This document shows positions 17,711 through 26,847 of a DNA stretch of 64,000 bases, piece by piece. This DNA comes from Treponema sp. (lineage in GTDB: Bacteria; Spirochaetota; Spirochaetia; Treponematales; Treponemataceae): assembly GCA_050873685.1 (NCBI GenBank), contig JBNMJH010000009.1:43591-107590 (forward strand), read 5' to 3'. A model generated the notes under the pieces. The model was not told the origin of the DNA, did no database searches, and saw only the letters and a program-made list of their open reading frames with translations. The first letter of the stretch is position 1, and each line of letters opens with the position of its first letter. A program made the translations under genes and the position numbers.

Positions 17711-18412
17711 TTAGTTTTTGCGAGGGTCGATAAGTTTTACCATACCCTGATCTTCTGTTACACGGCCATAATGAGTTCGTGCGCCTTTAATAGCTTCATC
17801 AGCAGGCTTTCCAGCCTTAAGAGCGTCCATCAATTTTCCGAAGTTGATACAGTTGTAGCCAATAACCTGATTGTCCTTGTCAACAGCCATAGTTTCAACA
17901 TAGCCTTCTGTCATCTCAAGGTAGCGAGGACCAGTCTTGCGTGTTGCGAACATAGTTCCAACCTGAGAACGAAGGTTCTTTCCAAGGTCTTCCAAAGAAG
18001 CACCAACTTTAAGACCATTCTTAGAATAAGCAGACTGAGAGCGTCCGTAAACAATCTGCATGAAAAGTTCGCGCATAGCAGTATTGATAGCATCGCAAAC
18101 AAGGTCAGTGTTCAAAGCTTCAAGCAAAGTTTTTCCGATAAGAATTTCAGAAGCCATAGCAGCTGAATGAGTCATACCAGAACAGCCAATTGTTTCAACC
18201 AATGCTTCTTCAATAATACCATCTTTGATGTTCAAAGAAAGCTTGCATGCTCCCTGCTGTGGTGCACACCAGCCGACACCGTGTGTAAAACCAGAAACAT
18301 CTTTGATTTCCTTAACCTGAACCCATTTTCCTTCTTCCGGAATAGGAGCTGGTCCATGATATGCGCCTTTTGCCAAAGGACACATATGCTCTACTTCTGC
18401 AGTGTAGATCAT
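17711..18412 (-). CDS. NifU/IscU-like Fe-S scaffold-domain protein
   Basis: ETIGCSGMTHSAAMASEILIGKTLLEAL resembles the IscU GC...AS...G core, with upstream Cys residues (HMCP, GWCAP, GACK). The gene is adjacent to the GGGtGRT gene. Confidence 0.6.
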   Translation of the reverse strand: MIYTAEVEHMCPLAKGAYHGPAPIPEEGKWVQVKEIKDVSGFTHGVGWCAPQQGACKLSLNIKDGIIEEALVETIGCSGMTHSAAMASEILIGKTLLEALNTDLVCDAINTAMRELFMQIVYGRSQSAYSKNGLKVGASLEDLGKNLRSQVGTMFATRKTGPRYLEMTEGYVETMAVDKDNQVIGYNCINFGKLMDALKAGKPADEAIKGARTHYGRVTEDQGMVKLIDPRKN

Positions 18413-18556
18413 TTAATCCCCCAAACTGCCGCCAAAACGGCAAAGAATTTCCATAAAAATTTTCTATAGAATATTACCACTAACTATTTTTTATCACAAT
18501 AAAAGGTTAGCAGGGGGTAACTAAAAAAAGCAAACACTTTCTATCCAGTCCGAATT

Positions 18557-19505
18557 TCATTCAAGTTTCTGTTTTATTTCCAGAACTTCTTCTATAGAAA
18601 GATTTGTCGCGGCGGAAATCTGCTCTGGAGAGCCAAGCCCCATTTTCAAAAGATTCTGGGCGGTTTCAACAGCTTTGCTATTCGCGCCTTCGATAATTCC
18701 GGCAGACCTTCCTTCTTTTATACCTTCCTCACGTCCTTCTTTCCTGCCTTCCGACAGCCCGGCCTCGCGGGCTTCCTCTTTCCATTCGCGCACCTGGTCA
18801 TCCCACAGCATATACTCTGCCCTCCATTTCTGGTGGCTCTTGCACACCTCGACTTCGCTCTGAATTCGGCGGGTTATGGCGTCCGACGCGGAGCGGTTTT
18901 TCAGGAACTCCAGAAACGAGCGCACCGCCGGATTCTCCGCCTTCGCGAAGTCGCTTGCATTATAAATCACTTTGTGGATTCTGTCATTCAGAATCCTGTC
19001 GCCGTCCTCTTCCCTCGTGACGAAGCTGTACACCGGCTTTCCGTCGCCGAACGGGTCTTCAAGGCAGATGAAAATGATGTATGACTCCTTCATCCTGCGG
19101 TAGCTTTCGCCGCGGCCCAGGTTTTCCACGTCGATTATGCTCTGGTAGTAGCGCATGCGGAGCCCTTCATCTGCCCGGACAACTGTCTGCATTTCTAACA
19201 AAACCATTTACTTATCTTTCATAATATTACCACTTCAGGTTTTGTTTCCAGTTTTGACAAGCAAAACTGGCCAATGGATTTACCACTTTGTCGGAATCCT
19301 CCAGATATGCGTCCAGCCTGACTCCGCGCCCGTCGTAAAGCTCGCCTAGCGAATACTGCGACGTCAGAAACTCAATCTTTCCGACCTTGACTCCAAGCAG
19401 GCTTTCCACAACGCCCTTCGCGATTTCCGGCTCGCGCATTATCTTGCTGAACAGAAAGTCGTCCGTGAAAAACAGATCCTCGTATTTTTTTGATTCGTAT
19501 CCCAT
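18557..19505 (-). pseudogene. Rpn-family (YhgA-like PD-(D/E)XK) recombination-promoting nuclease, disrupted
   Basis: The N-terminal 70 aa (19505 downward) and the remainder (19207 downward) each align to the intact paralog at 19673-20506. They are separated by stops and a frame change around 19208-19290. Confidence 0.75.
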
Positions 19506-19520
19506 TTTGCCTCCGAATAT

Positions 19521-19564
19521 TTATCGCGGAAAAATTGCAAAAATGGAAATGAATCACAAAAAAA
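19521..19564 (-). repeat. Rpn-leader repeat, copy a
   Basis: ttatcgcggaaaaattgcaaaaatggaaatgaatcacaaaaaaa lies directly upstream (in gene sense) of the disrupted rpn start. Confidence 0.85.
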
Positions 19565-19576
19565 TCTTCCAATCTT

Positions 19577-19615
19577 AAAAAAAAACACGCCGAGTTTTTT
19601 TAAATTCTCGGCGTG
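19577..19615 (-). terminator. rho-independent terminator of the intact rpn gene
   Basis: A 9-bp perfect stem pairs cacgccgag (19586-19594) with ctcggcgtg (19607-19615). On the minus strand it is followed by T9 (plus-strand A9 at 19577-19585). Confidence 0.75.
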
Positions 19616-19672
19616 AATTTTTAAAAACTCGGCGTGTTTTCAGTCAATTCTCGCCGAGAATTTTTGTTTTAA

Positions 19673-20506
19673 TCAGCGTGCAGTTTTTGCTTCTTTTTGC
19701 AATTCAAGCACTTTTTCCAGCGGAAGACTGGTGTATTTTGACACAGACTGAGGAGACAAATTGTCTTTCAACATCTTCTGCGCGGTTTCAATTCTGTTTT
19801 CATTTAGAGCTTTTTTTGCGGCCAAATCCGCCTGAAGCTCCACTTCTTCTTGCCAAGTCATAAATTCGTGCCTCCAGCGAGCGTTCATCTTTAGTCGGTC
19901 AACGATTGCGGAGATTTTCTCTGAAAAATCGGAACTTGGTTCTTTTCCGCAAAGATATCTAAAGAATGATTTCAACTCTTCGGACTTCATTGTATCATAC
20001 TTTCTGGCGTTGAAGAAGATTTTGTGCGTTCCGTCGTTCATTTTGATTTCCGGGCTCTCGGTGCAGACATTCTCAAAAGTGTAGACAGGCAGACCAGAAC
20101 CGAAAGCGTCGCCAAGGCATAGGAAGATGACGTAGGTTTCGTTCAGATCCTTGTATTTCGTGCCTGTGAAAACGCTGTCAACGTCCATCAATCCCTGGTA
20201 ATAGCGGGTTCGTTTTGCAAGCGCCAGCTCCTTTTCAACAGAAGTCTGAACCTCGATGTCAAAGCAGCGGCCGGTTCCGTCCTTTACATAAACGTCCAGG
20301 CGGATTCCCCGGGAATCGTAGTCGGCCTTGATTGCGCGCTCGGCTTCCGGAATTCCAATTCTTTCAATCTTAATGTTCAGCAGAAGCTCAAGCATTTCCT
20401 TGCAGATGTCGGGATTGTTTTCCATAACCTTACAAAAAATGTAATTATCTGCAAAAGTGAGTTTTTCCCACTTTTCCGCGGGTGTAAGTTCATTTTTATT
20501 TCGCAT
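19673..20506 (-). CDS. Rpn-family recombination-promoting nuclease / putative transposase (TIGR01784-type)
   Basis: The 277-aa product has a typical family N-terminus, LTFADNYIFCKVMENNPDICKEMLELLL...RGIRLDVYVKDGTGRCFDIEVQT, with D/E/Q nuclease-core context. The conserved tail reads AQKMLKDNLSPQSVSKYTSLPLEKVLEL. Confidence 0.8.
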   Translation of the reverse strand: MRNKNELTPAEKWEKLTFADNYIFCKVMENNPDICKEMLELLLNIKIERIGIPEAERAIKADYDSRGIRLDVYVKDGTGRCFDIEVQTSVEKELALAKRTRYYQGLMDVDSVFTGTKYKDLNETYVIFLCLGDAFGSGLPVYTFENVCTESPEIKMNDGTHKIFFNARKYDTMKSEELKSFFRYLCGKEPSSDFSEKISAIVDRLKMNARWRHEFMTWQEEVELQADLAAKKALNENRIETAQKMLKDNLSPQSVSKYTSLPLEKVLELQKEAKTAR

Positions 20507-20724
20507 GAAAATCTCCTCTACAGCCTGAATGTTGATTTTTTTTACAAAAGAGATAGAAGCGCAGGCAGATTTGCAGTTTGTGAAGACTTTGGGCGATTCA
20601 AAAAATTAAAGTGCAGCGCACCCGAATCATTACAAGCGGAGCGCGAGCCCAATCCGTCTGGAGCAAACTGTAAATCCGCCGGAAGCGACTTTTCACGATT
20701 TTCAAAAATTAAACATTCATATAC

Positions 20725-20768
20725 TTATCGTGGAAAAATTGCAAAAACGGAAATGAATCACAAAAAAA
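20725..20768 (-). repeat. Rpn-leader repeat, copy b
   Basis: ttatcgtggaaaaattgcaaaaacggaaatgaatcacaaaaaaa lies ~215 bp upstream of the intact rpn ATG and abuts the higA 3' end. Confidence 0.85.
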
Positions 20769-20784
20769 GAGGAGAGATTTTTTC

Positions 20785-21084
20785 TTATATTTTTAAAAGC
20801 ACTTTTTCCGCAGTTTCTGCAGTTTTGGGAAGAGCAACGATTTCCAGTCCCATTCCAAGGCTGTCAAGGTAGTCAATAAGGGTAGAGATTTTTATGTCTT
20901 TTCGTTTTTCAATTTTTGAAACAGCTGTCTGTGTAAAATTCTGCATTTCAGACTGCTTTATATTTTGCTCTTCACGAAGCTGAGCAAGGTGGATTGAAAG
21001 AATTTCCTGCTCAGCCTTCAGGCGGGCACGCCGAACAGAGTCTTCAGACATCTGCGATTCCATCATTTTTACGGCATTTTTCAT
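20785..21084 (-). CDS. higA: XRE-family HTH antitoxin (HigA-like)
   Basis: NIKQSEMQNFTQTAVSKIEKRKDIKISTLIDYLDSLGMGLEIV is an HTH plus the typical C-terminal pattern. AGGAGG lies 6 nt upstream of the ATG at 21084. The gene overlaps the toxin gene. Confidence 0.75.
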   Translation of the reverse strand: MKNAVKMMESQMSEDSVRRARLKAEQEILSIHLAQLREEQNIKQSEMQNFTQTAVSKIEKRKDIKISTLIDYLDSLGMGLEIVALPKTAETAEKVLLKI

Positions 21085-21466
21085 TTTTTTCCTCCTGATC
21101 TTTTTCGTGGATCGCTATGATTCCTTCAGCTTCAGCAATAAGATTTTTGTAGAACTTATTTTGGTCTTTTCCTTTTTTGTCACCACCAGTAAGCAAAAAC
21201 GCTTTACGCTCAGAATCAAAATAATATGCAAATCTAAGAATATGATTTTTAGTTCTATTTCTAAGTTCTTTCAAATTAGAATGGTTTTTATTGCCATGCA
21301 GAACATCTGCATAAGGTCTAGGAAGATTCGGTTCTAAGCGCTGCAAAAGCAAAACTCGTTCCAGTACAGCTTCTTTAGATTCATCGTCTAAAGAACTGAA
21401 CCACTTATCATATTCGTATGATGATGCAACTTCCCATACAACTTTATTATATGCACTTGGATTCAT
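21044..21466 (-). CDS. higB: RelE/ParE-superfamily toxin, HigB/Gp49-like
   Basis: DKWFSSLDDESKEAVLERVLLLQ...LHGNKNHSNLKELRNRTKNHILRFAYYFDSERKAFLLTGGDKKGK is the characteristic killer-protein pattern. I set the start at ATG 21466 (MNPSAYNK), not the TTG at 21475. Confidence 0.75.
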   Translation of the reverse strand: MNPSAYNKVVWEVASSYEYDKWFSSLDDESKEAVLERVLLLQRLEPNLPRPYADVLHGNKNHSNLKELRNRTKNHILRFAYYFDSERKAFLLTGGDKKGKDQNKFYKNLIAEAEGIIAIHEKDQEEKNEKCRKNDGIADV

Positions 21467-21501
21467 ATTTGTCAAATAACAATATAAAAAGAGACGAATC
21501 T

Positions 21502-21591
21502 TTCGCGATTTCCGGCTCGCGCATTATCTTGCTGAACAGAAAGTCGTCCGTGAAAAACAAATCCTCGTATTTTTTTTGATTCGTACCTCAT
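21502..21591 (-). pseudogene. 5' remnant of a third rpn gene (first ~30 codons, frameshifted)
   Basis: 21502-21653 aligns to 19417-19566 with about 8 differences, including T8 versus T7. The homology stops abruptly ~35 bp from the higB start. Confidence 0.8.
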
Positions 21592-21606
21592 CTTGCCTCC
21601 AGATAT

Positions 21607-21651
21607 TTATCGCGGAAAAATTGCAAAAAACGGAAATGAATCACAAAAAAA
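21607..21651 (-). repeat. Rpn-leader repeat, copy c
   Basis: ttatcgcggaaaaattgcaaaaaacggaaatgaatcacaaaaaaa. Confidence 0.85.
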
Positions 21652-21673
21652 TCAAGGAAATTTTCACCGCCAG

Positions 21674-21859
21674 TTTTAGTTTTAATCAGCATGCCACTGA
21701 CTAGCAAATCAGCACGGCGCTTATTAGCTAGTCAGCACAGCACTGACTAACTAATCATCATAACACTGACTAGTTAATCAACAGACTGCTGATTATGTTA
21801 ATCATTAGACCGCTGATTAGACTAATCAGCGGCTCACTGACTAGTTAATCAGCGGTGTG
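21674..21859. repeat. tandem array: 7 units (plus 1 degenerate) of 23-24 bp, each with a 16-17-bp imperfect palindrome CTGAYTAG-N-TAATCAG
   Basis: Units start at 21697, 21720, 21743, 21766, 21789, 21813 and 21837, giving spacings of 23, 23, 23, 23, 24 and 24 bp. Unit 21813 (ctgattagactaatcag) is a perfect palindrome. There is no ORF of 60 aa or more in any frame. Confidence 0.9.
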
Positions 21860-21991
21860 TTGCACGGAAAGGAGATAAACCGCGTTATGGAAACAATTCA
21901 GAGGCTGCTATGGACTTGTTCAGAAGTATTCTACGGACATAAAGCGAGGCGTTGCATTACTGTATTTGCAGAGCCGCAAGTATAGTGAAGG

Positions 21992-22013
21992 AACGGAAAT
22001 GAATCACAAAAAA
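21992..22013 (-). repeat. Rpn-leader repeat, partial copy d
   Basis: acggaaatgaatcacaaaaaa. Confidence 0.7.
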
Positions 22014-22026
22014 TTCATGTCCTCGA

Positions 22027-22190
22027 GTTTTTATTTTTTGAAACAGCTGTCTGTGTAAAATTCTGCATTTCAGACTGCTTTATATCCTGTTCTTCTCGAA
22101 ACTGGGAAAAGCAGATTGAAAGAATTTCTGTCTCAGACTTCAGGCGGACACGCCGAACAGAGTCTTCAGACATCTTTGATTCAATCGTCC
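22027..22190 (-). pseudogene. truncated duplicate of higA (N-terminal half only)
   Basis: It aligns to 20906-21065 and includes a 49-nt identical run (ttttgaaacagctgtctgtgtaaaattctgcatttcagactgctttata). It would encode MSEDSVRRVRLKSETEILS...MQNFTQTAVSK followed by a premature stop. Confidence 0.75.
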
Positions 22191-22198
22191 ATAAAAAA

Positions 22199-23170
22199 CT
22201 AAAAGACTGAAAAAGTCATACCTATTTTTAATCCATAAAGAATAGTGCTGCTGCCAGATTTTTGCCTTGAAAGGACAGGTTTTGAACTATAGTAATTATG
22301 ATAAAAATTTCCTTTCATTAAATTTCCGTTCAATAAATCAAGTTCAATCAATGCAGCAATATTACTTGAAAATTTATAGCTAGAATAAACAGAAAACTTC
22401 AAATAATCAAATGAACCTTTTTGATAGCCGTTCAAATTGTACCAGCTATTTTTTGCAAAATGCTTGTCATAAGTTACTATATAAGAAAAGAAACTGAAAT
22501 TTAAATTGAAACCAAACAATATTTTTTCAGAAGGATATATTTCACATAAAAAGCCAGAAAAAAAATTAAAATACAATCTTTCTAAATCTATACCATATAC
22601 TTTGTGATATGCAGCATATTCACTATTCCATGGAACATCTTTTCCATTCAAGGAATAATCTTCCGCCCCGAAATACCCATAACCATTACCGGCTTCTATT
22701 TTGAAATACGAATAATCAAAAGTAAACAAAGGTGAAAATGTAAAATATTTTTTTTCAGTGTTTTTATTTGCAAGACTAAAGTTATATCCAAGTCCAATAG
22801 ATGAATTGAAAATCAAGCCAACATTCTCTTCCAATTTTGAATAAATGGTTTTTATTTCTCCAGAAGCGTTCCAGTCGCTGTCATACAAAGTTCCGCATTT
22901 TACAGGCAACGCAAAATCTGCATTTCCAAGAATATAGATATTTTTCCATCCGAATTTTGCCTTTGCTCCAAACTGATACAATGAATTCAAGTTCCATTCA
23001 AGCTTACTTTTCATTATTGAATCATCGGAGCTTGAATAAATCAATTCATTCAAACAACCTTTTGAGAAACTAAAATAAGGTGTAATTTCAAGCAGAAAAT
23101 CCTTTTTTTGTTCAGAAAACGCAGAAACGCCAAATACAAAAAAAACAAATAAAAAACAATAATTCCGCAT
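22199..23170 (-). CDS. omptin-like outer-membrane beta-barrel (putative protease), paralog A
   Basis: It has a signal peptide MRNYCFLFVFFVFGVSAFS and a C-terminal aromatic residue (TFSVF). LYDSDW matches the OmpT Asp83/Asp85 DxDW region and YDKHF matches the Asp210/His212 DxH region. It alternates aromatic and aliphatic beta-strand patterns. Confidence 0.55.
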   Translation of the reverse strand: MRNYCFLFVFFVFGVSAFSEQKKDFLLEITPYFSFSKGCLNELIYSSSDDSIMKSKLEWNLNSLYQFGAKAKFGWKNIYILGNADFALPVKCGTLYDSDWNASGEIKTIYSKLEENVGLIFNSSIGLGYNFSLANKNTEKKYFTFSPLFTFDYSYFKIEAGNGYGYFGAEDYSLNGKDVPWNSEYAAYHKVYGIDLERLYFNFFSGFLCEIYPSEKILFGFNLNFSFFSYIVTYDKHFAKNSWYNLNGYQKGSFDYLKFSVYSSYKFSSNIAALIELDLLNGNLMKGNFYHNYYSSKPVLSRQKSGSSTILYGLKIGMTFSVF

Positions 23171-23178
23171 ATAAATTA

Positions 23179-23217
23179 AAAAACAAAAAAAGGACGCTGG
23201 TAAAAAATCCAGCGCCC
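23179..23217 (-). terminator. terminator between the small lipoprotein ORF and omptin-like gene A
   Basis: The stem pairs cgctgg (23195-23200) with ccagcg (23209-23214), with flanking G-C pairs. On the minus strand it is followed by TTTTTTTGTTTTT. Confidence 0.55.
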
Positions 23218-23228
23218 CGTTATTTTAT

Positions 23229-23384
23229 TTATTTTGCTTCCTGAACTACAACTGTTGAATCTGCGTCAACTGTATTTGGAGTTTTCGCCTGCGAAGAAAC
23301 TTTTGTTGACGCACAGCTTGCAAAAAAGAATACAGTCAAAACAGAAACAACAAGAATTCTTGTAAATTGCAAAGACTTTCTCAT
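23229..23384 (-). CDS. small lipoprotein (51 aa), not in the ORF track
   Basis: My own translation gives MRKSLQFTRILVVSVLTVFFFASCASTKVSSQAKTPNTVDADSTVVVQEAK. The ATG follows immediately after the TAA of the upstream lipoprotein gene (gaggaaTAAATG), and the lipobox is FASC. Confidence 0.5.
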   Translation of the reverse strand: MRKSLQFTRILVVSVLTVFFFASCASTKVSSQAKTPNTVDADSTVVVQEAK

Positions 23385-24224
23385 TTATTCCTCATCATAA
23401 TCTGCTGGAATTGGATTGCCCTGAATATCAGAATAAGCAATGCTTCCTTTTACAGTCTGCTTATAATAAACTGTTAGATAGCGTCCAATTCTCTGCTGAG
23501 TTTTCTTTTCAAAACCTGTTACAGTATTTGAAATAGTCGCTGTTTCATAAGTTTCTGATCCGTCAGCATTCTGAAGTTCAACTTTATAAGAACCATCATC
23601 ATTTGCAGTAACAGCAATTTTTACAACAAGGTTTCCATCTGTAAGAGCAACAGAAGTATTTTCCCATGCTCCGCTTGTAGGAATAATCTGAGTTTCTTTG
23701 CCAAGTTCTACTTTATCATCGCCAATTTTGTCTGTAAAATCAGAACTGTTGTTATAGCCAAATACAGTTTCAGGAGTTTTCTCTACCCAAGAAACATACC
23801 ACTGAACTTTTTTTGTATTAACATTGTAACGAACAGAAGCAATTCCAAATGTATATACTTTTACACTCTTATCTTTTCCGTCCTGTTTTACTTTTTCAGA
23901 ATCATCATATTCACCAAATACAAATCCAAGTCCTGCATTAGAAACAACAGAATGGCTAGCATCAGTTGCAGACAACTCTGGCTTTTCAATTGTAATCAAC
24001 GCATTTGAACTATAGTGATTTGTTTTTGTAGTTTTAAATCCACGGTAGTAGTTGTAACCAGCAGCATCATCCGCTGTAACAGTGTCGCTTGCCTGACCAT
24101 GAGTAAATTCAATGTTTTCTCCATTGATTGCATCACCATCATCAGAGCCATCCGCACATCCCGCAAAACCAAACACCAATGCAGCGGCAACTGCACTACT
24201 TAAAAGAACCTTTGAAAGTTTCAT
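23385..24224 (-). CDS. surface lipoprotein, variable cassette A (currently joined to promoter/ATG: ON configuration)
   Basis: MKLSKVLLSSAVAAALVFGFAGCADGSDDGD has an AGC lipobox. A strong promoter and RBS sit upstream. The protein is distantly similar to cassette B: YYRGFKTT/YRRYWKQF, AGLGFVFGE/AGFAFDYNK and NLVVKIAVTANDDGSYKVEL/NVVTCVVKITQENKKYSVYL. Confidence 0.75.
   Translation of the reverse strand: MKLSKVLLSSAVAAALVFGFAGCADGSDDGDAINGENIEFTHGQASDTVTADDAAGYNYYRGFKTTKTNHYSSNALITIEKPELSATDASHSVVSNAGLGFVFGEYDDSEKVKQDGKDKSVKVYTFGIASVRYNVNTKKVQWYVSWVEKTPETVFGYNNSSDFTDKIGDDKVELGKETQIIPTSGAWENTSVALTDGNLVVKIAVTANDDGSYKVELQNADGSETYETATISNTVTGFEKKTQQRIGRYLTVYYKQTVKGSIAYSDIQGNPIPADYDEE
24190..24213 (-). 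repeat. inverted repeat IR-L (24 bp, perfect match to IR-R)
   Basis: The plus strand actgcactacttaaaagaaccttt is the reverse complement of aaaggttcttttaagtagtgcagt. It covers codons 5-12 of cassette A. Confidence 0.95.
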
Positions 24225-24256
24225 TTTTTTTCTCCTCTTTTTTGAGTTTTTCTTTA

Positions 24257-24284
24257 ATTATATTTTCATAAGAAAAATTGTCAA
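24257..24284 (-). promoter_or_regulatory. near-consensus sigma70 promoter reading out through IR-L
   Basis: On the minus strand: TTGACA (24284-24279), a 16-nt spacer and TATAAT (24262-24257). GAGGAG follows, 7 nt before the ATG at 24224. Confidence 0.75.
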
Positions 24285-24300
24285 TATTAAAAAAAGTCTT

Positions 24301-24951
24301 CTATTTATAGATTCCTGATTTCCATTTTTCGGAACGGCGATTTTCCGGAATGAATTTGCCTGTGTAGACCAGGTAGCGGTAGAAAGTTCCGGCGGAAACT
24401 CCTATTTCGCGGGCGATTCTGCATTTTGGCGTTCCTGCGGCCAGAAGGGAATTTATTTTTTTGCTCTGCGAAACGCATTTCTGGTTCAGACGGCCTCTTT
24501 TTCCAGGAATTCTTCCAAGTTTCTTGCCGGAAGCTTTGCGGGCGGCAAGCGCTTCCTTTGTTCTCTGGCTTATGAGCTGGCGTTCTATTTCCGCGCTTAT
24601 GGAAAACGCAAAAGCAAGAATTTTTGACTGTATGTCATTTTGAAGAATGAAATTTTCTTTTATTGTCCGGATGTTGCATTCTTTTGCGATGCAGATATTC
24701 AGAATTTCCATAATCATAAAGAAATTTCTTCCGAGCCTCGAAAGCTCCGTGCAGATTATTGTATCGTCCTTCCTGATTTTTCCGAGCAGCGAGCCGAGTT
24801 TCCGCTTTCTGTAGTTCTTTGTTCCGCTTATAGTTTCTTCAATCCAGCCGTCAATAAGAATATTATGGATTCCGCACCACCGCCTTATTTCAAAACGCTG
24901 GTTCTCCACGGTCTGCTTGTCTGTGCTTACACGAATATAGCCGTACGTCAT
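24301..24951 (-). CDS. serine recombinase, resolvase/invertase family
   Basis: MTYGYIRVSTDKQ carries the catalytic Ser context. LSRLGRN and the AEIERQLISQRTKEAL E-helix are present, with a C-terminal HTH (CRIAREIGVSAGTFYRYL). GGTGAGG lies 7 nt before the ATG at 24951. Confidence 0.85.
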   Translation of the reverse strand: MTYGYIRVSTDKQTVENQRFEIRRWCGIHNILIDGWIEETISGTKNYRKRKLGSLLGKIRKDDTIICTELSRLGRNFFMIMEILNICIAKECNIRTIKENFILQNDIQSKILAFAFSISAEIERQLISQRTKEALAARKASGKKLGRIPGKRGRLNQKCVSQSKKINSLLAAGTPKCRIAREIGVSAGTFYRYLVYTGKFIPENRRSEKWKSGIYK

Positions 24952-25064
24952 TTTTTTCCTCACCTTTTTTGAATAAAAAGATACAGGAAATTTCTATTTG
25001 TTTTCAAAATTTGGGAACGGGAGGAAGACTGTATTTTTTATAATACGCAGACAATAAACACACT

Positions 25065-25088
25065 AAAGGTTCTTTTAAGTAGTGCAGT
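25065..25088 (+). repeat. inverted repeat IR-R (24 bp)
   Basis: aaaggttcttttaagtagtgcagt lies in the reading frame of cassette B (AAG GTT CTT TTA AGT AGT GCA GT). Confidence 0.95.
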
Positions 25089-25836
25089 GCTTGTTGCTGC
25101 AATGGCGACAATGTTTGTTGGCTGCAAGGCAGATGAAGATGGCGAGGGCGATACTGACGGTTCAAAGTGGAATCTCACAATGACTGTTGATGCTACAGAC
25201 AGCGCAAAAACTGAACTGACAAAAAAATACCGTCGCTATTGGAAACAGTTTTCCAGAGATGAAAAATGTGCAGAAATCACTACAACACTTACTTTAAATT
25301 TGGATGAATGCATACTTCCTGACGGAGCAGCTTCTGTTGCAGGATTTGCTTTTGACTATAATAAAAATACAAAAGATGCCAAAAAAGTTGATTTCAACTT
25401 GATTGGTGTAAACCCAAAAACACAGAAATTCTATGTAGAAAGATACACTGGAGTTTCTGAGCCGGGTTCAGAATCATTGGACACAGATGAAAAAGCTATA
25501 AGCTCCAACGCAACAGACCTTGAAACTGTAGCAAAATCAAGCGGTTGGTGCAATCTTACAGACAAAATGTACTCTCGAAAGGACAATGTAGTTACTTGTG
25601 TTGTAAAAATCACACAGGAAAACAAGAAATATTCTGTTTATCTTGGAGATGTAAAAGTTGCAGAATACGATGCTTCTGCTTCAACTTACACAAATACTAT
25701 CAACAAGAAAGATTATGCTGTGGGTGGAATTCTTTGCTACGGTAACGCTGAAAAAGGCGTAAAACTTATTGCAAACTACAGCACAAATAAGAGCGATGTA
25801 ACTGGAAAACTGATGGAAAACATCGATGAAAGATAG
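25087..25836 (+). CDS. surface lipoprotein, variable cassette B (currently lacks ATG/RBS/promoter: silent configuration)
   Basis: The frame is open from the TGA at 24970, but it contains no in-frame ATG/GTG/TTG before the GTG at 25087. Upstream of IR-R it reads ATA AAC ACA CTA. With the swapped head the product would be MKLSKVLLSSAVLVAAMATMFVGCKAD (lipobox VGC). Confidence 0.6.
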   Translation: MLVAAMATMFVGCKADEDGEGDTDGSKWNLTMTVDATDSAKTELTKKYRRYWKQFSRDEKCAEITTTLTLNLDECILPDGAASVAGFAFDYNKNTKDAKKVDFNLIGVNPKTQKFYVERYTGVSEPGSESLDTDEKAISSNATDLETVAKSSGWCNLTDKMYSRKDNVVTCVVKITQENKKYSVYLGDVKVAEYDASASTYTNTINKKDYAVGGILCYGNAEKGVKLIANYSTNKSDVTGKLMENIDER

Positions 25837-25905: not shown

Positions 25906-26847
25906 ATGAAGAAAAAACACTTGTTCAGAAATCTTATTCTCTCAATATTTTTACTTGCATCTTCAAAATGCTTTTCAGAAATTCAAATCATTCCAAACAT
26001 AGGCTTTTCCTTCGGCTCAATGGGAGAATATCTATACTCGCCTTACAGCGCCAACCTGTGGAGCTACCTGGAATGGGAAGAAAAACCGTCCATAAGTGTT
26101 GGAAGCAACTTTTTATTCAAATTGAAAAACAATTATTTTAAATTCAATATTTTCTTCAGTTTGCCTCTAGAATGCGGAAAAATGACCGATTCCGACTGGT
26201 CAGAATCCGGCATAAACTATGCATACTCCGTAAATGAAAACAAAATCAAATGTGCTTTCCGTTTGGAAACAGAATACAACTACGAATTCTATCTTAACAA
26301 TTTCTTAAGCATTTCCCCTGCCGCGGGAATAAAGTTCTTTTATTCTTCATACAAAGCCAGAAACGGTTACGGATGGTACGGAACAGAGGAATGGTCAAAG
26401 AACGGCGAACTGGTTTCCTGGAACGATGACAATGCGCATTACTTTCCAGATGAAAAATACAAACTCGCCGGAATTGACTATTCAAGATGCACGTTGATTT
26501 TTAACACAGGCTTTTTTTTCAACTTAAGGCTAAAGAAGACAAAAATAAGCGCAGGTTTTCTTTTTAGTCCGATTTCCTACATTTATGCGCTAGACCATCA
26601 CCTTGGAAAAACAAACAGTTTTAAATATGAAGAAATACAATATCCACTTTTTAAGTATTATGAAACAACACTTGAAGCATCCTACAAAATAAACAGGCTT
26701 TTAAAGGCATATTCAAAAATCAGCTATATCTTTGGCTTAAAAAGCAAAGGCGAAAGCTATAAAAATTCATCTTCAAAATCATATCAAAAATCCGGTTCGG
26801 ACTTTTATTCGGCAGTTTTCTGCGCAGGACTAGGATTTTGCTTTTAA
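25906..26847 (+). CDS. omptin-like outer-membrane beta-barrel (putative protease), paralog B
   Basis: It has a signal peptide MKKKHLFRNLILSIFLLASSKCFS and a C-terminal GLGFCF. MTDSDW matches the DxDW region and LDHHLG the DxH region. It is collinear with paralog A: GYGWYGTEEWSKNGELVSWN versus GYGYFGAEDYSLNGKDVPWN. Confidence 0.55.
   Translation: MKKKHLFRNLILSIFLLASSKCFSEIQIIPNIGFSFGSMGEYLYSPYSANLWSYLEWEEKPSISVGSNFLFKLKNNYFKFNIFFSLPLECGKMTDSDWSESGINYAYSVNENKIKCAFRLETEYNYEFYLNNFLSISPAAGIKFFYSSYKARNGYGWYGTEEWSKNGELVSWNDDNAHYFPDEKYKLAGIDYSRCTLIFNTGFFFNLRLKKTKISAGFLFSPISYIYALDHHLGKTNSFKYEEIQYPLFKYYETTLEASYKINRLLKAYSKISYIFGLKSKGESYKNSSSKSYQKSGSDFYSAVFCAGLGFCF

Follow-up and report, generated by a model that had tools for sequence, protein, structure and literature searches.

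The 7+4 element, a conserved polar array of phased dyads and boxes in host-associated Treponema and a candidate promoter control region

What is a run of tandem palindromes, with stop codons in every reading frame, that stands between a truncated rpn remnant and a truncated higA duplicate in a Treponema genome? The run occupies positions 21674 to 21859 of a 64,000-nucleotide stretch of Treponema sp. (assembly GCA_050873685.1, contig JBNMJH010000009.1, positions 43,591 to 107,590 of the forward strand), which was analyzed as a whole and is called the window here. An initial annotation, made from the sequence letters only, had suggested cooperative binding of a dimeric protein to the array and had proposed a relic partition or origin site, a binding or cleavage array for Rpn nucleases, or an insulator. 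The array proves to be one module, the first of two, in a polar, noncoding element of about 290 bp, which we name the 7+4 element. Related loci are cited by L numbers.

The seven dyad units of the array begin at 21697, 21720, 21743, 21766, 21789, 21813, and 21837, in steps of 23, 23, 23, 23, 24, and 24 bp, and a terminal half-unit, TTTTAG TTTTAATCAG (also given as TTTTAGTTTTAATCAG), precedes unit 1 at 21674 to 21689. Tandem Repeats Finder reported 21683 to 21853 with a period of 23, 7.3 copies, and a score of 100, the top score in the window; together with the sequence, this confirmed the unit starts, the spacings, and the degenerate first unit of the initial annotation. Unit 1 (21697 to 21712) consists of the dyad CTGACTAgcAAATCAG followed by the linker cacggcg, and units 2 (21720 to 21735), 3 (21743 to 21758), and 4 (21766 to 21781) have the dyads CTTATTAgcTAGTCAG, CTGACTAacTAATCAT, and CTGACTAgtTAATCAA, respectively. 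Unit 5 (21789 to 21805) is a 17-bp dyad, CTGATTAtgtTAATCAT, with a 3-nucleotide (nt) center, and unit 6 (21813 to 21829), CTGATTAgacTAATCAG (identical to ctgattagactaatcag), is, as had been noticed, a perfect palindrome, of 17 bp. The 3-nt center of these two units is kept across loci along with the 23- and 24-bp steps. Unit 7 (21837 to 21852; dyad CTGACTAgtTAATCAG) is the best-conserved unit across loci, with alignment columns 157 to 174 nearly invariant.

With up to three mismatches allowed, the core pattern matched 12 times in the window (1.88 expected), a number that none of 100 shuffles attained, and 10 of the 12 matches lay in the array. A two-unit pattern matched five times against an expectation of 0.00. 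Three independent metagenome contigs (L003, L004, and L005; one from JGI and two from ENA) match the array base for base; the array is therefore not an assembly artifact, a possibility that had been raised and is now ruled out. The six-frame stops are also real. Across 21683 to 21859, each of the six frames holds 5 to 11 stop codons, compared with a mean minimum per-frame count of 1.35 in 2000 shuffles, none of which reached 5. They arise because the half-site CTGAYTAR has TGA and TAR four bases apart and is mirrored, so that with a 2-nt center each strand carries TGA, TAR, and TAR in three frames. The stops are a by-product of the half-site sequence and show no sign of selected function; of the proposed six-frame stop or insulator, the stops stand and the function finds no support.

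The first module of the 7+4 element, module A, consists of the seven dyad-symmetric 16- or 17-bp sites, CTGAYTAR-(N)-YTARTCAG, at 23- or 24-bp steps. The polar 7-nt linker that follows each dyad is asymmetric, with the consensus CAnACCR (C-A-n-A-C-C-R). Module B, which the initial annotation had not described, carries the element rightward to about 21965 with four AYGGA boxes that continue the 23-bp phase of the dyads, and with a further conserved box. Counted from where the last dyad begins, the GGA positions are +29/30, +52/53, +75/76, and +98/99 in most loci. In the window, module B spans 21864 to 21965. All four of its boxes are on the plus strand: B1, ACGGAA, at 21864 to 21869 (its GGA at +29 relative to the first base of unit 7); B2, ATGGAA, at 21887 to 21892; B3, ATGGAC, at 21910 to 21915; and B4, ACGGAC, at 21933 to 21938, each 23 bp past the box before it. 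The distal conserved box, GCGTTGCATTACTGTAT (21949 to 21965), forms the right end of the profile match described below and was seen in the window, L021, L024, L042, L097, L155, and L079 and, more weakly, in L067.

Arrays oriented alike share the left end TTTTAGTT-TWATCAG. In the window, the terminal half-site TAATCAG (21683 to 21689) and a specialized last linker together occupy 21683 to 21696, and the minus strand at 21688 to 21696 reads TGGCATGCT. The gene-proximal flank to the left (21659 to 21682; aattttcaccgccagttttagtt) is homologous to the short 5' untranslated stretch that joins the element to the start codon of a gene encoding an HU-Ig protein (see below) at ancestral loci; read leftward across loci, it conserves ...CTGATTAAAACTAAAAYT..GGCGG... 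We also considered a 32-codon open reading frame (ORF) at 21887 to 21985, which the ATG of box B2 opens behind a Shine-Dalgarno-like AAGGAG. This candidate gene was rejected, as conservation tracks the 23-bp boxes and not codons. The ATG is lost in five or more loci, being ACG in L024, L042, L097, L079, and L126, and is therefore not a conserved start codon. With at least five stops in every frame and the ORF start codon lost in relatives, the element is not coding.

A pattern scan covering one genome per species, to which a metagenome scan added further arrays, placed the multi-unit arrays of the species scan almost entirely in gut and rumen Treponema. The carriers include RUG314, a Hadza-gut metagenome-assembled genome (MAG), UBA7570, UBA7590, and T. 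porcinum ATCC BAA-908; one bin labeled Anaerovoracaceae also has an array. A 290-position profile built from eleven elements matched end to end (positions 2 to 290) at 27 loci, about 16 nonredundant sites, with E values of 1e-40 to 1e-83, so the motif does occur in other genomes. These loci belong to gut and rumen Treponema MAGs, T. porcinum, and the Anaerovoracaceae bin. The profile gave a single match in the 64-kb window, at 21681 to 21969, and in the pattern scan the MAGs had one to four loci each. Unit count and spacing are mostly kept: six arrays (the window, L021, L051, L097, L099, and L131) have seven units in steps of 23, 23, 23, 23, 24, and 24 bp. The same spacing stands behind one extra degenerate leading unit in L101 and L035, L024 is a near variant of it, and T. 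porcinum (L079) may, in our reading, be credited with seven units if two degenerate ones are counted.

An alignment of 14 loci was almost gapless, with 72% mean column identity. Mean pairwise identity was 73.5% in module A and 51.5% in module B, where it was concentrated in the boxes, whereas 390-amino-acid (aa) proteins encoded beside the element are merely 50 to 60% identical across loci. The 23/24-bp phasing is thus maintained across deep divergence. Compared with the same locus in the Treponema MAG RUG314 (L021), the window array is 89% identical and the sequence outside module A about 96% identical, and the substitutions fall mostly in linkers and centers.

At several loci, only about 30 nt separate the left end of the element from the coding start of a 265- to 272-aa protein with HU-DNA_bdg and DUF4469 (Ig-like) domains, called HU-Ig here, which belongs to the Ig-fused branch of the HU-HIG clade (PMC5499826). 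The HU-Ig gene is often followed by a gene for an AAA-ATPase_like+PDDEXK_9 or an AAA_14+DUF4143 protein. On the other side of the element is the gene for the 390-aa protein, which is clade specific (53% identical between L097 and T. porcinum); its homologues form only 27 clusters, all metagenomic, and the HU-Ig subfamily, at 12 clusters, is just as narrow. As an independent test of this arrangement, contigs were picked by homology to the 390-aa protein and not by the DNA pattern. The element was present, in the same orientation, in all six contigs that reach past the 390-aa gene (L148, L149, L152, L153, L154, and L155), and the HU-Ig gene came next in all four that are long enough (L148, L149, L154, and L155). 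L150 is too short to be judged, and L151 has an insertion sequence at the position in question. The order 390-aa gene, boxes, dyads, and HU-Ig gene across these contigs therefore indicates the ancestral context. The ancestral loci have no rpn gene.

In the direction of HU-Ig, the last linker and the terminal half-site read as an extended -10 motif, TGnTATACT or TGnTATGCT. The motif TGnTAnnnT occupied the terminal linker in all 12 loci where HU-Ig (or its start) lies downstream and in none of 8 loci without it, including the window, where the counterpart of the TGnTATACT of HU-Ig loci has decayed to CATGCT. The internal linkers (YGGTnTG) differ from the terminal linker exactly at the TATA positions.

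Among 80 units from 12 arrays, T2 and A4 of the left half-site and T4', C5', and A6' of the right half-site were invariant or nearly so. The variable mirrored position 5 (C/T against G/A) was C/G in 3 units, C/A in 15, T/G in 13, and T/A in 49, and the two sides varied independently (odds ratio of 0.75; Fisher P = 1.0), with no covariation. The half-site sequence itself is conserved, not mere pairing ability. Short motifs at exact 23-bp steps, with free sequence between them, suggest rows of proteins on duplex DNA. A protein array on DNA requires this kind of strict phasing, with a 5-nt box at every 23-bp step, and RNA-binding sponges do not. The earlier suggestion of cooperative dimer binding gains support from the half-site conservation, the independent mirrored changes, and the kept phasing, although the binding is still a prediction from sequence.

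We favor, with moderate confidence, the interpretation of the 7+4 element as a phased cooperative protein-docking array that acts at the DNA level and controls a promoter from upstream. The data show the architecture of the element, its conservation, its genomic context, the lack of pairing covariation, and the correlation with a promoter motif; that a protein binds, that it does so cooperatively, and what regulation results are inferred. A putative sequence-specific dimeric protein would bind the seven dyads cooperatively, and this protein or a partner would occupy the four direct AYGGA boxes. The two bound modules would build a higher-order nucleoprotein complex directly upstream of, and overlapping, the leftward promoter. 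At the ancestral locus, the last linker and terminal half-site would serve as the extended -10 (TGnTATACT) of the HU-Ig gene. This would place dyad 1 at about -16 to -31, where a bound protein could repress or otherwise tightly control the promoter, and the other sites would reach out to about -270.

Several observations weigh against this interpretation. The promoter assignment rests on a motif correlation and not on mapped transcription starts, and a canonical sigma-70 scan of the array gave no -35/-10 pair and no canonical -35. A missing -35 is compatible with an extended -10 promoter. Several secondary copies (L051 and L126) lack a gene downstream of their left end, and promoter control can therefore be only part of the explanation. 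Unit number also varies among secondary copies (2 to 5 in L042, L065, L067, and L127), which is ordinary tandem-repeat behavior. No binding protein for the array was found. The 390-aa protein had no match in Pfam, NCBIfam, PADLOC, or PDB, and its AlphaFold model (pLDDT of 45) was too poor for a fold search. In alignment, HU-Ig lacks the Arg/Pro-rich beta-arms of DNA-binding HU/IHF proteins, and the published analysis of the family argues that the HU-HIG protein does not clasp DNA (PMC5499826). HU-Ig is therefore an unlikely binder of the array, with an arm region devoid of basic and Pro residues, in agreement with that analysis. HigA was set aside as an unlikely binder: higBA adjoins the array in the window and RUG314 only and has its own perfect TTGACA-18-TATAAT promoter.

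As to unit number, L042 resembles L024 with units 4 to 6 (72 bp) deleted, which indicates that unit-register deletions occur.

We weighed four alternatives to the docking array, which in descending order of our confidence are a recombination or nuclease target, an RNA element, a centromere or origin, and an inert minisatellite. The window copy is described first. The window has no HU-Ig, 390-aa, or AAA-PDDEXK_9 gene. Its copy belongs with L021/L147, L024, and L042 to an rpn-fused sublineage, whose elements are linked through a 26-nt direct repeat, D6 (AACGGAAATGAATCAC...), to sequence upstream of an rpn gene (matching TIGR01784). The window holds four copies of D6, at 19542, 20746, 21629, and 21992, and two of them bracket the element: the left copy (21629 to 21654; AACGGAAATGAATCACAAAAAAATCA) is rpn upstream sequence, and the right copy (21992 to 22017), 96% identical to it, forms the junction to the truncated higA. 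The homology of L021, L024, and L042 to the window stops at 21999 to 22011. The rpn gene behind the window element was cut after 30 codons by the higBA module. Its 5' remnant (21502 to 21591, minus strand; MRYESKKYEDLFFTDDFLFSKIMREPEIAK...) is 99% identical over 75 nt to 19417 to 19491, and the truncated higA duplicate on the other side of the array (22015 to 22173, minus strand; a 52-aa ORF) shares 87% identity with the intact higA over 159 nt. These are the two gene fragments that the initial annotation had named on either side of the array. A solo copy of the left flank and terminal half-site (19646 to 19681; family D9) is 81% identical over 36 nt to 21659 to 21694. It provides the TGA stop codon of the intact rpn gene (19673 to 20506, minus strand), with the same junction in L024, and bears out the noted resemblance of the first unit to the rpn stop codon region.

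The window copy is a displaced secondary copy, moved by recombination to a position before an rpn gene that was later truncated. All seven of its dyads and all four of its boxes are intact, and it may therefore still be bound, as a decoy or local organizer, or be a young relic.

Two metagenome variants of the region were seen. L006 joins an outer-membrane-protein gene straight to the intact higA and lacks the array and higB, and L003 lacks the intact rpn gene. The breakpoints of these structural variants (18500 to 22200) lie at the higA duplicate and the D6 repeat and not in the dyads. In RUG314 (L021), the gene adjoining the element differs or has the opposite orientation.

According to the first alternative, the dyads are recognition or cleavage sites of adjacent PD-(D/E)XK enzymes (Rpn/PDDEXK_2, AAA-ATPase+PDDEXK_9, or AAA_14+DUF4143), and the element is a gene-exchange hotspot. 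The gene families found just past the left end or past HU-Ig are indeed all nuclease type and multicopy, and some loci lie in defense islands (L126 with hsdR; L148 and L149 with a methylase alongside AAA_5 and SMC-like ATPases). The window locus, too, is a mosaic of remnants (the rpn 5' end, the higA 3' end, and four copies of the 26-nt repeat), with variants that lack single modules in L003 and L006 and with the terminal half-site and flank fused to the 3' end of the intact rpn. However, the breakpoints in the window lie at D6 and the higA copies rather than in the dyads, and the seven-unit array is intact at the ancestral locus, which is unexpected for a site that is repeatedly cut and rejoined. 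The dyad sequence also stays constant while the neighboring nuclease families change between loci. The absence of rpn from the ancestral loci, with fusion to rpn confined to the one sublineage (window, L021, L024, and L042), weakens in particular the earlier proposal of an Rpn binding or cleavage array. We consider a nuclease target unlikely, although it survives better than the three other alternatives.

A second alternative is that the array is transcribed as a multihairpin or repeat RNA, either an antitoxin of the type III kind or, through the GGA motifs of module B, a protein sponge. At rpn-type loci the array is upstream of, and codirectional with, a potentially toxic nuclease gene, and the A(N)GGA motifs of module B resemble those bound by CsrA-type proteins. 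Single-sequence folding was far more stable than that of shuffles (z = -7.3 and -5.5), but repeated palindromes give such scores trivially, and the hairpin loops would be only 2 to 3 nt. RNAalifold returned an empty consensus for module B on both strands; on the plus strand, the full element scored only -13.3 kcal/mol (covariation term, -0.23), which is no meaningful consensus; the mirrored variable positions, as noted, do not covary. No Rfam family reached the gathering score at 14 related loci, and an Rfam E-value scan of the window at 18000 to 25500 gave subthreshold chance matches, including an animal miRNA model over the palindromes. Known sponge RNAs are not characterized by GGA boxes at an exact 23-nt spacing. 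ToxI-like RNAs consist of tandem direct repeats of about 34 to 45 nt that are transcribed with, and upstream of, a ToxN/AbiQ-type toxin gene. The 7+4 element differs from them in its 23/24-nt period, in its downstream genes (HU-Ig or Rpn, not ToxN), and in having the -10 downstream of the repeats. An HU-Ig mRNA begun from the conserved -10, which follows the array, would lack the repeats. An RNA element is improbable.

The initial annotation had compared the array with plasmid and phage centromere and iteron sites, and the third alternative is accordingly a centromere-like or iteron site of an integrated plasmid, phage, or integrative and conjugative element. Partition systems have arrays of centromere or operator sites, such as R1 parC, the pSK41 ParR site, the pSM19035 omega heptad arrays, and F sopC, and the 7+4 element shares with them tandem, phased repeats for protein binding, which here is predicted. 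The sopC units each contain an inverted repeat, as the 7+4 units do. Partition centromeres often double as the promoter-operator of an adjacent operon, and the parC and omega arrays, which sit on or next to such a promoter, resemble in this respect the predicted arrangement of the element. The seven units and the period of about two helical turns also recall iteron origins, which have direct repeats of about 17 to 22 bp at about two helical turns; R6K gamma has seven 22-bp iterons, and the iterons of lambda are imperfect palindromes bound by dimers that wrap the DNA. As in the R6K gamma iterons and the lambdoid O-some, the 7+4 sites are in tandem at about two turns. With a period of 23/24 bp and a polar linker, the 7+4 units are direct repeats, but each unit is dyad symmetric as well.

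These likenesses are of architecture, and the context largely refutes the idea. Pfam scans of the window neighbors (about 7.6 to 37 kb sampled) and of related loci found no ParA, ParB, ParM, ParR, or RHH gene, and no Rep-family domain occurred in any neighbor tested; nor were par, rep, integrase, or conjugation genes present in the annotated parts of the window or related loci. On reading the flanks, for which no dedicated scan was made, no AT-rich unwinding element or DnaA boxes stood out. A blastn search with 21500 to 22020 (521 bp) against 72,556 plasmids (PLSDB) and 50,697 phage records (INPHARED) gave no match, and a pattern scan of viral contigs gave one match, which was judged to be due to chance. 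Unlike partition arrays, the 7+4 element has no partner ParA, ParM, ParR, or omega gene, is absent from the plasmid and phage collections, and is chromosomal, conserved, and multicopy; its unit is a composite of dyad and polar linker, and it has a second module of four AYGGA boxes. Unlike iteron origins, it abuts a predicted promoter -10, has conserved chromosomal synteny, and occurs in several copies per genome. The genes around it in the window have housekeeping functions (argG, amylase, GGGtGRT, a NifU-like gene, argS, and EF-G); a tRNA-Leu gene lies 8 kb from it, and no boundaries of an integrated element are evident. With its conserved chromosomal positions and one to four copies per genome, the 7+4 element is thus very improbable as a relic partition or origin site.

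Other known systems offer partial parallels. MetJ met-boxes and ArgR ARG boxes (with TGA-N8-TCA cores) are tandem palindromic operators of cooperative repressors, and like them the 7+4 element has imperfect palindromes head to tail near a promoter, which here is predicted, as is the cooperative binding. Such operators have two to five boxes with a period of 8 or 21 bp, compared with seven plus four sites at 23/24 bp. The ARG box TGAAT-N4-ATTCA and TGATTA-NN-TAATCA have the outer TGA...TCA at the same spacing, which we regard as a lead only, and the same applies to resemblances to the IHF core (WATCAR-N4-TTR, compared with AATCAG-CAnA-CCR) and to the N15 telomere-resolvase site. REP/BIME sequences are likewise clustered short intergenic palindromes. 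However, REPs are GC-rich hairpins, usually in 3' untranslated regions, with tens to hundreds of dispersed copies, whereas the 7+4 element has one copy in the 64 kb of the window and only a few in a genome, with half-sites that do not covary and a fixed architecture. The array is not CRISPR-like, as the initial annotation had also held: its linkers are 7-nt consensus sequences, and no cas genes were found among the annotated neighbors. No description of the element was found in Rfam, in plasmid or phage collections, or in the searchable literature, and literature searches on DUF4469 and on Treponema tandem repeats with Rpn gave nothing relevant. The 7+4 element would work like centromere-operator or multibox repressor arrays but is not a member of those families, whose defining partner genes and replicon context were sought in the annotated parts and not found.

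Least probable of all, and to our minds barely credible, is a functionless minisatellite or passive insulator that persists by slippage or gene conversion and whose stops block read-through translation: unit number does vary in secondary copies, module A has diverged faster than its flanks between the window and RUG314, and the stops are strongly enriched, but unit-by-unit orthology, the 7+4 count, and the pattern of 2-nt and 3-nt centers are kept between loci whose flanking proteins are 50 to 60% identical, substitutions avoid core positions, and the stops follow automatically from CTGAYTAR.

Some matches to the DNA pattern proved to be other things. The matching Planctomycetota MAGs (L016, L069, L096, L111, and L121) have an unrelated multicopy element of their own, in which inverted arms made of TAATCAG/CTGATTA heptamer runs surround a GC-rich hairpin, and the match to the search pattern was due to chance similarity of the heptamer. 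Matches in Hahella (L058) and in a Bacteroidaceae MAG (L014) were weak look-alikes. L014, from a GC-rich genome, has four TTAATCAG motifs at steps of about 24 bp (406 to 490; weak profile match, E of about 1e-4), with a deaminase-like gene on one side and a large unannotated ORF on the other.

The window has other repeat features near the element. Directly 3' of the intact rpn, at 19579 to 19663, is a complex palindrome with 29-nt arms that are 90% complementary and an 18-nt arm pair. Upstream of the same gene, a 117-bp segment (20564 to 20680) is bounded by 17-bp inverted repeats, GGCAGATTTGCAGTTTG and CAAACTGTAAATCCGCC. Its inner 83 bp are identical at 70 of 83 positions to the reverse complement of the corresponding L024 segment, with no same-strand match, which suggests a small inverton. 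A perfect sigma-70 consensus, TTGACA-18-TATAAT, lies at 21446 to 21475 on the minus strand before the higB-like Gp49 gene and overlaps the TTG of its longest ORF; the true start of this gene is probably the ATG at 21466. Farther to the right, a segment (24176 to 25105) with a serine recombinase gene (24301 to 24963) is inverted in L002 relative to the window and L001. The short inverted repeats of the segment, GCACTACTTAAAAGAACCTTT, are part of the signal-peptide ends of two divergent lipoprotein-like genes (23385 to 24224, minus strand; 25087 to 25836, plus strand), and the segment looks like an invertible expression switch. Paralogous genes for omptin-like outer membrane proteins (22199 to 23170, minus strand; 25906 to 26847, plus strand) flank it.

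For genome annotation, these results mean that this six-frame-stop repeat is neither an artifact nor a plasmid relic. The 7+4 element adds a new and well-defined form to the general class of tandem arrays of protein-binding sites, with an unusual composite design and a narrow phylogenetic range, and architecturally fixed, conserved noncoding DNA elements have rarely been described in uncultured gut spirochetes. With about 290 bp, eleven phased sites, two motif types, polarity, and a home locus, it is a well-defined target in the search for its binder, and a cultured carrier exists in T. porcinum ATCC BAA-908 (L079). The identity of the binder could reveal how multicopy nuclease and HU-like genes are controlled in Treponema, where Rpn-family nuclease genes have picked up copies of the element upstream. 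A more speculative idea, which we advance only tentatively, is that the 7+4 element, the 390-aa protein, and HU-Ig form a three-part module restricted to host-associated Treponema. The 390-aa protein, HU-Ig, or an unlinked factor would polymerize on the eleven phased sites into a nucleoprotein particle that gates the expression of HU-HIG and nuclease "conflict" genes, and extra copies of the array, such as that of the window, would recruit the particle to silence or arm Rpn-type toxic nucleases. The HU-HIG family has no known function, and a role in genetic conflicts has been proposed for it (PMC5499826). If such a module exists, it would give the first functional handle on this enigmatic family.

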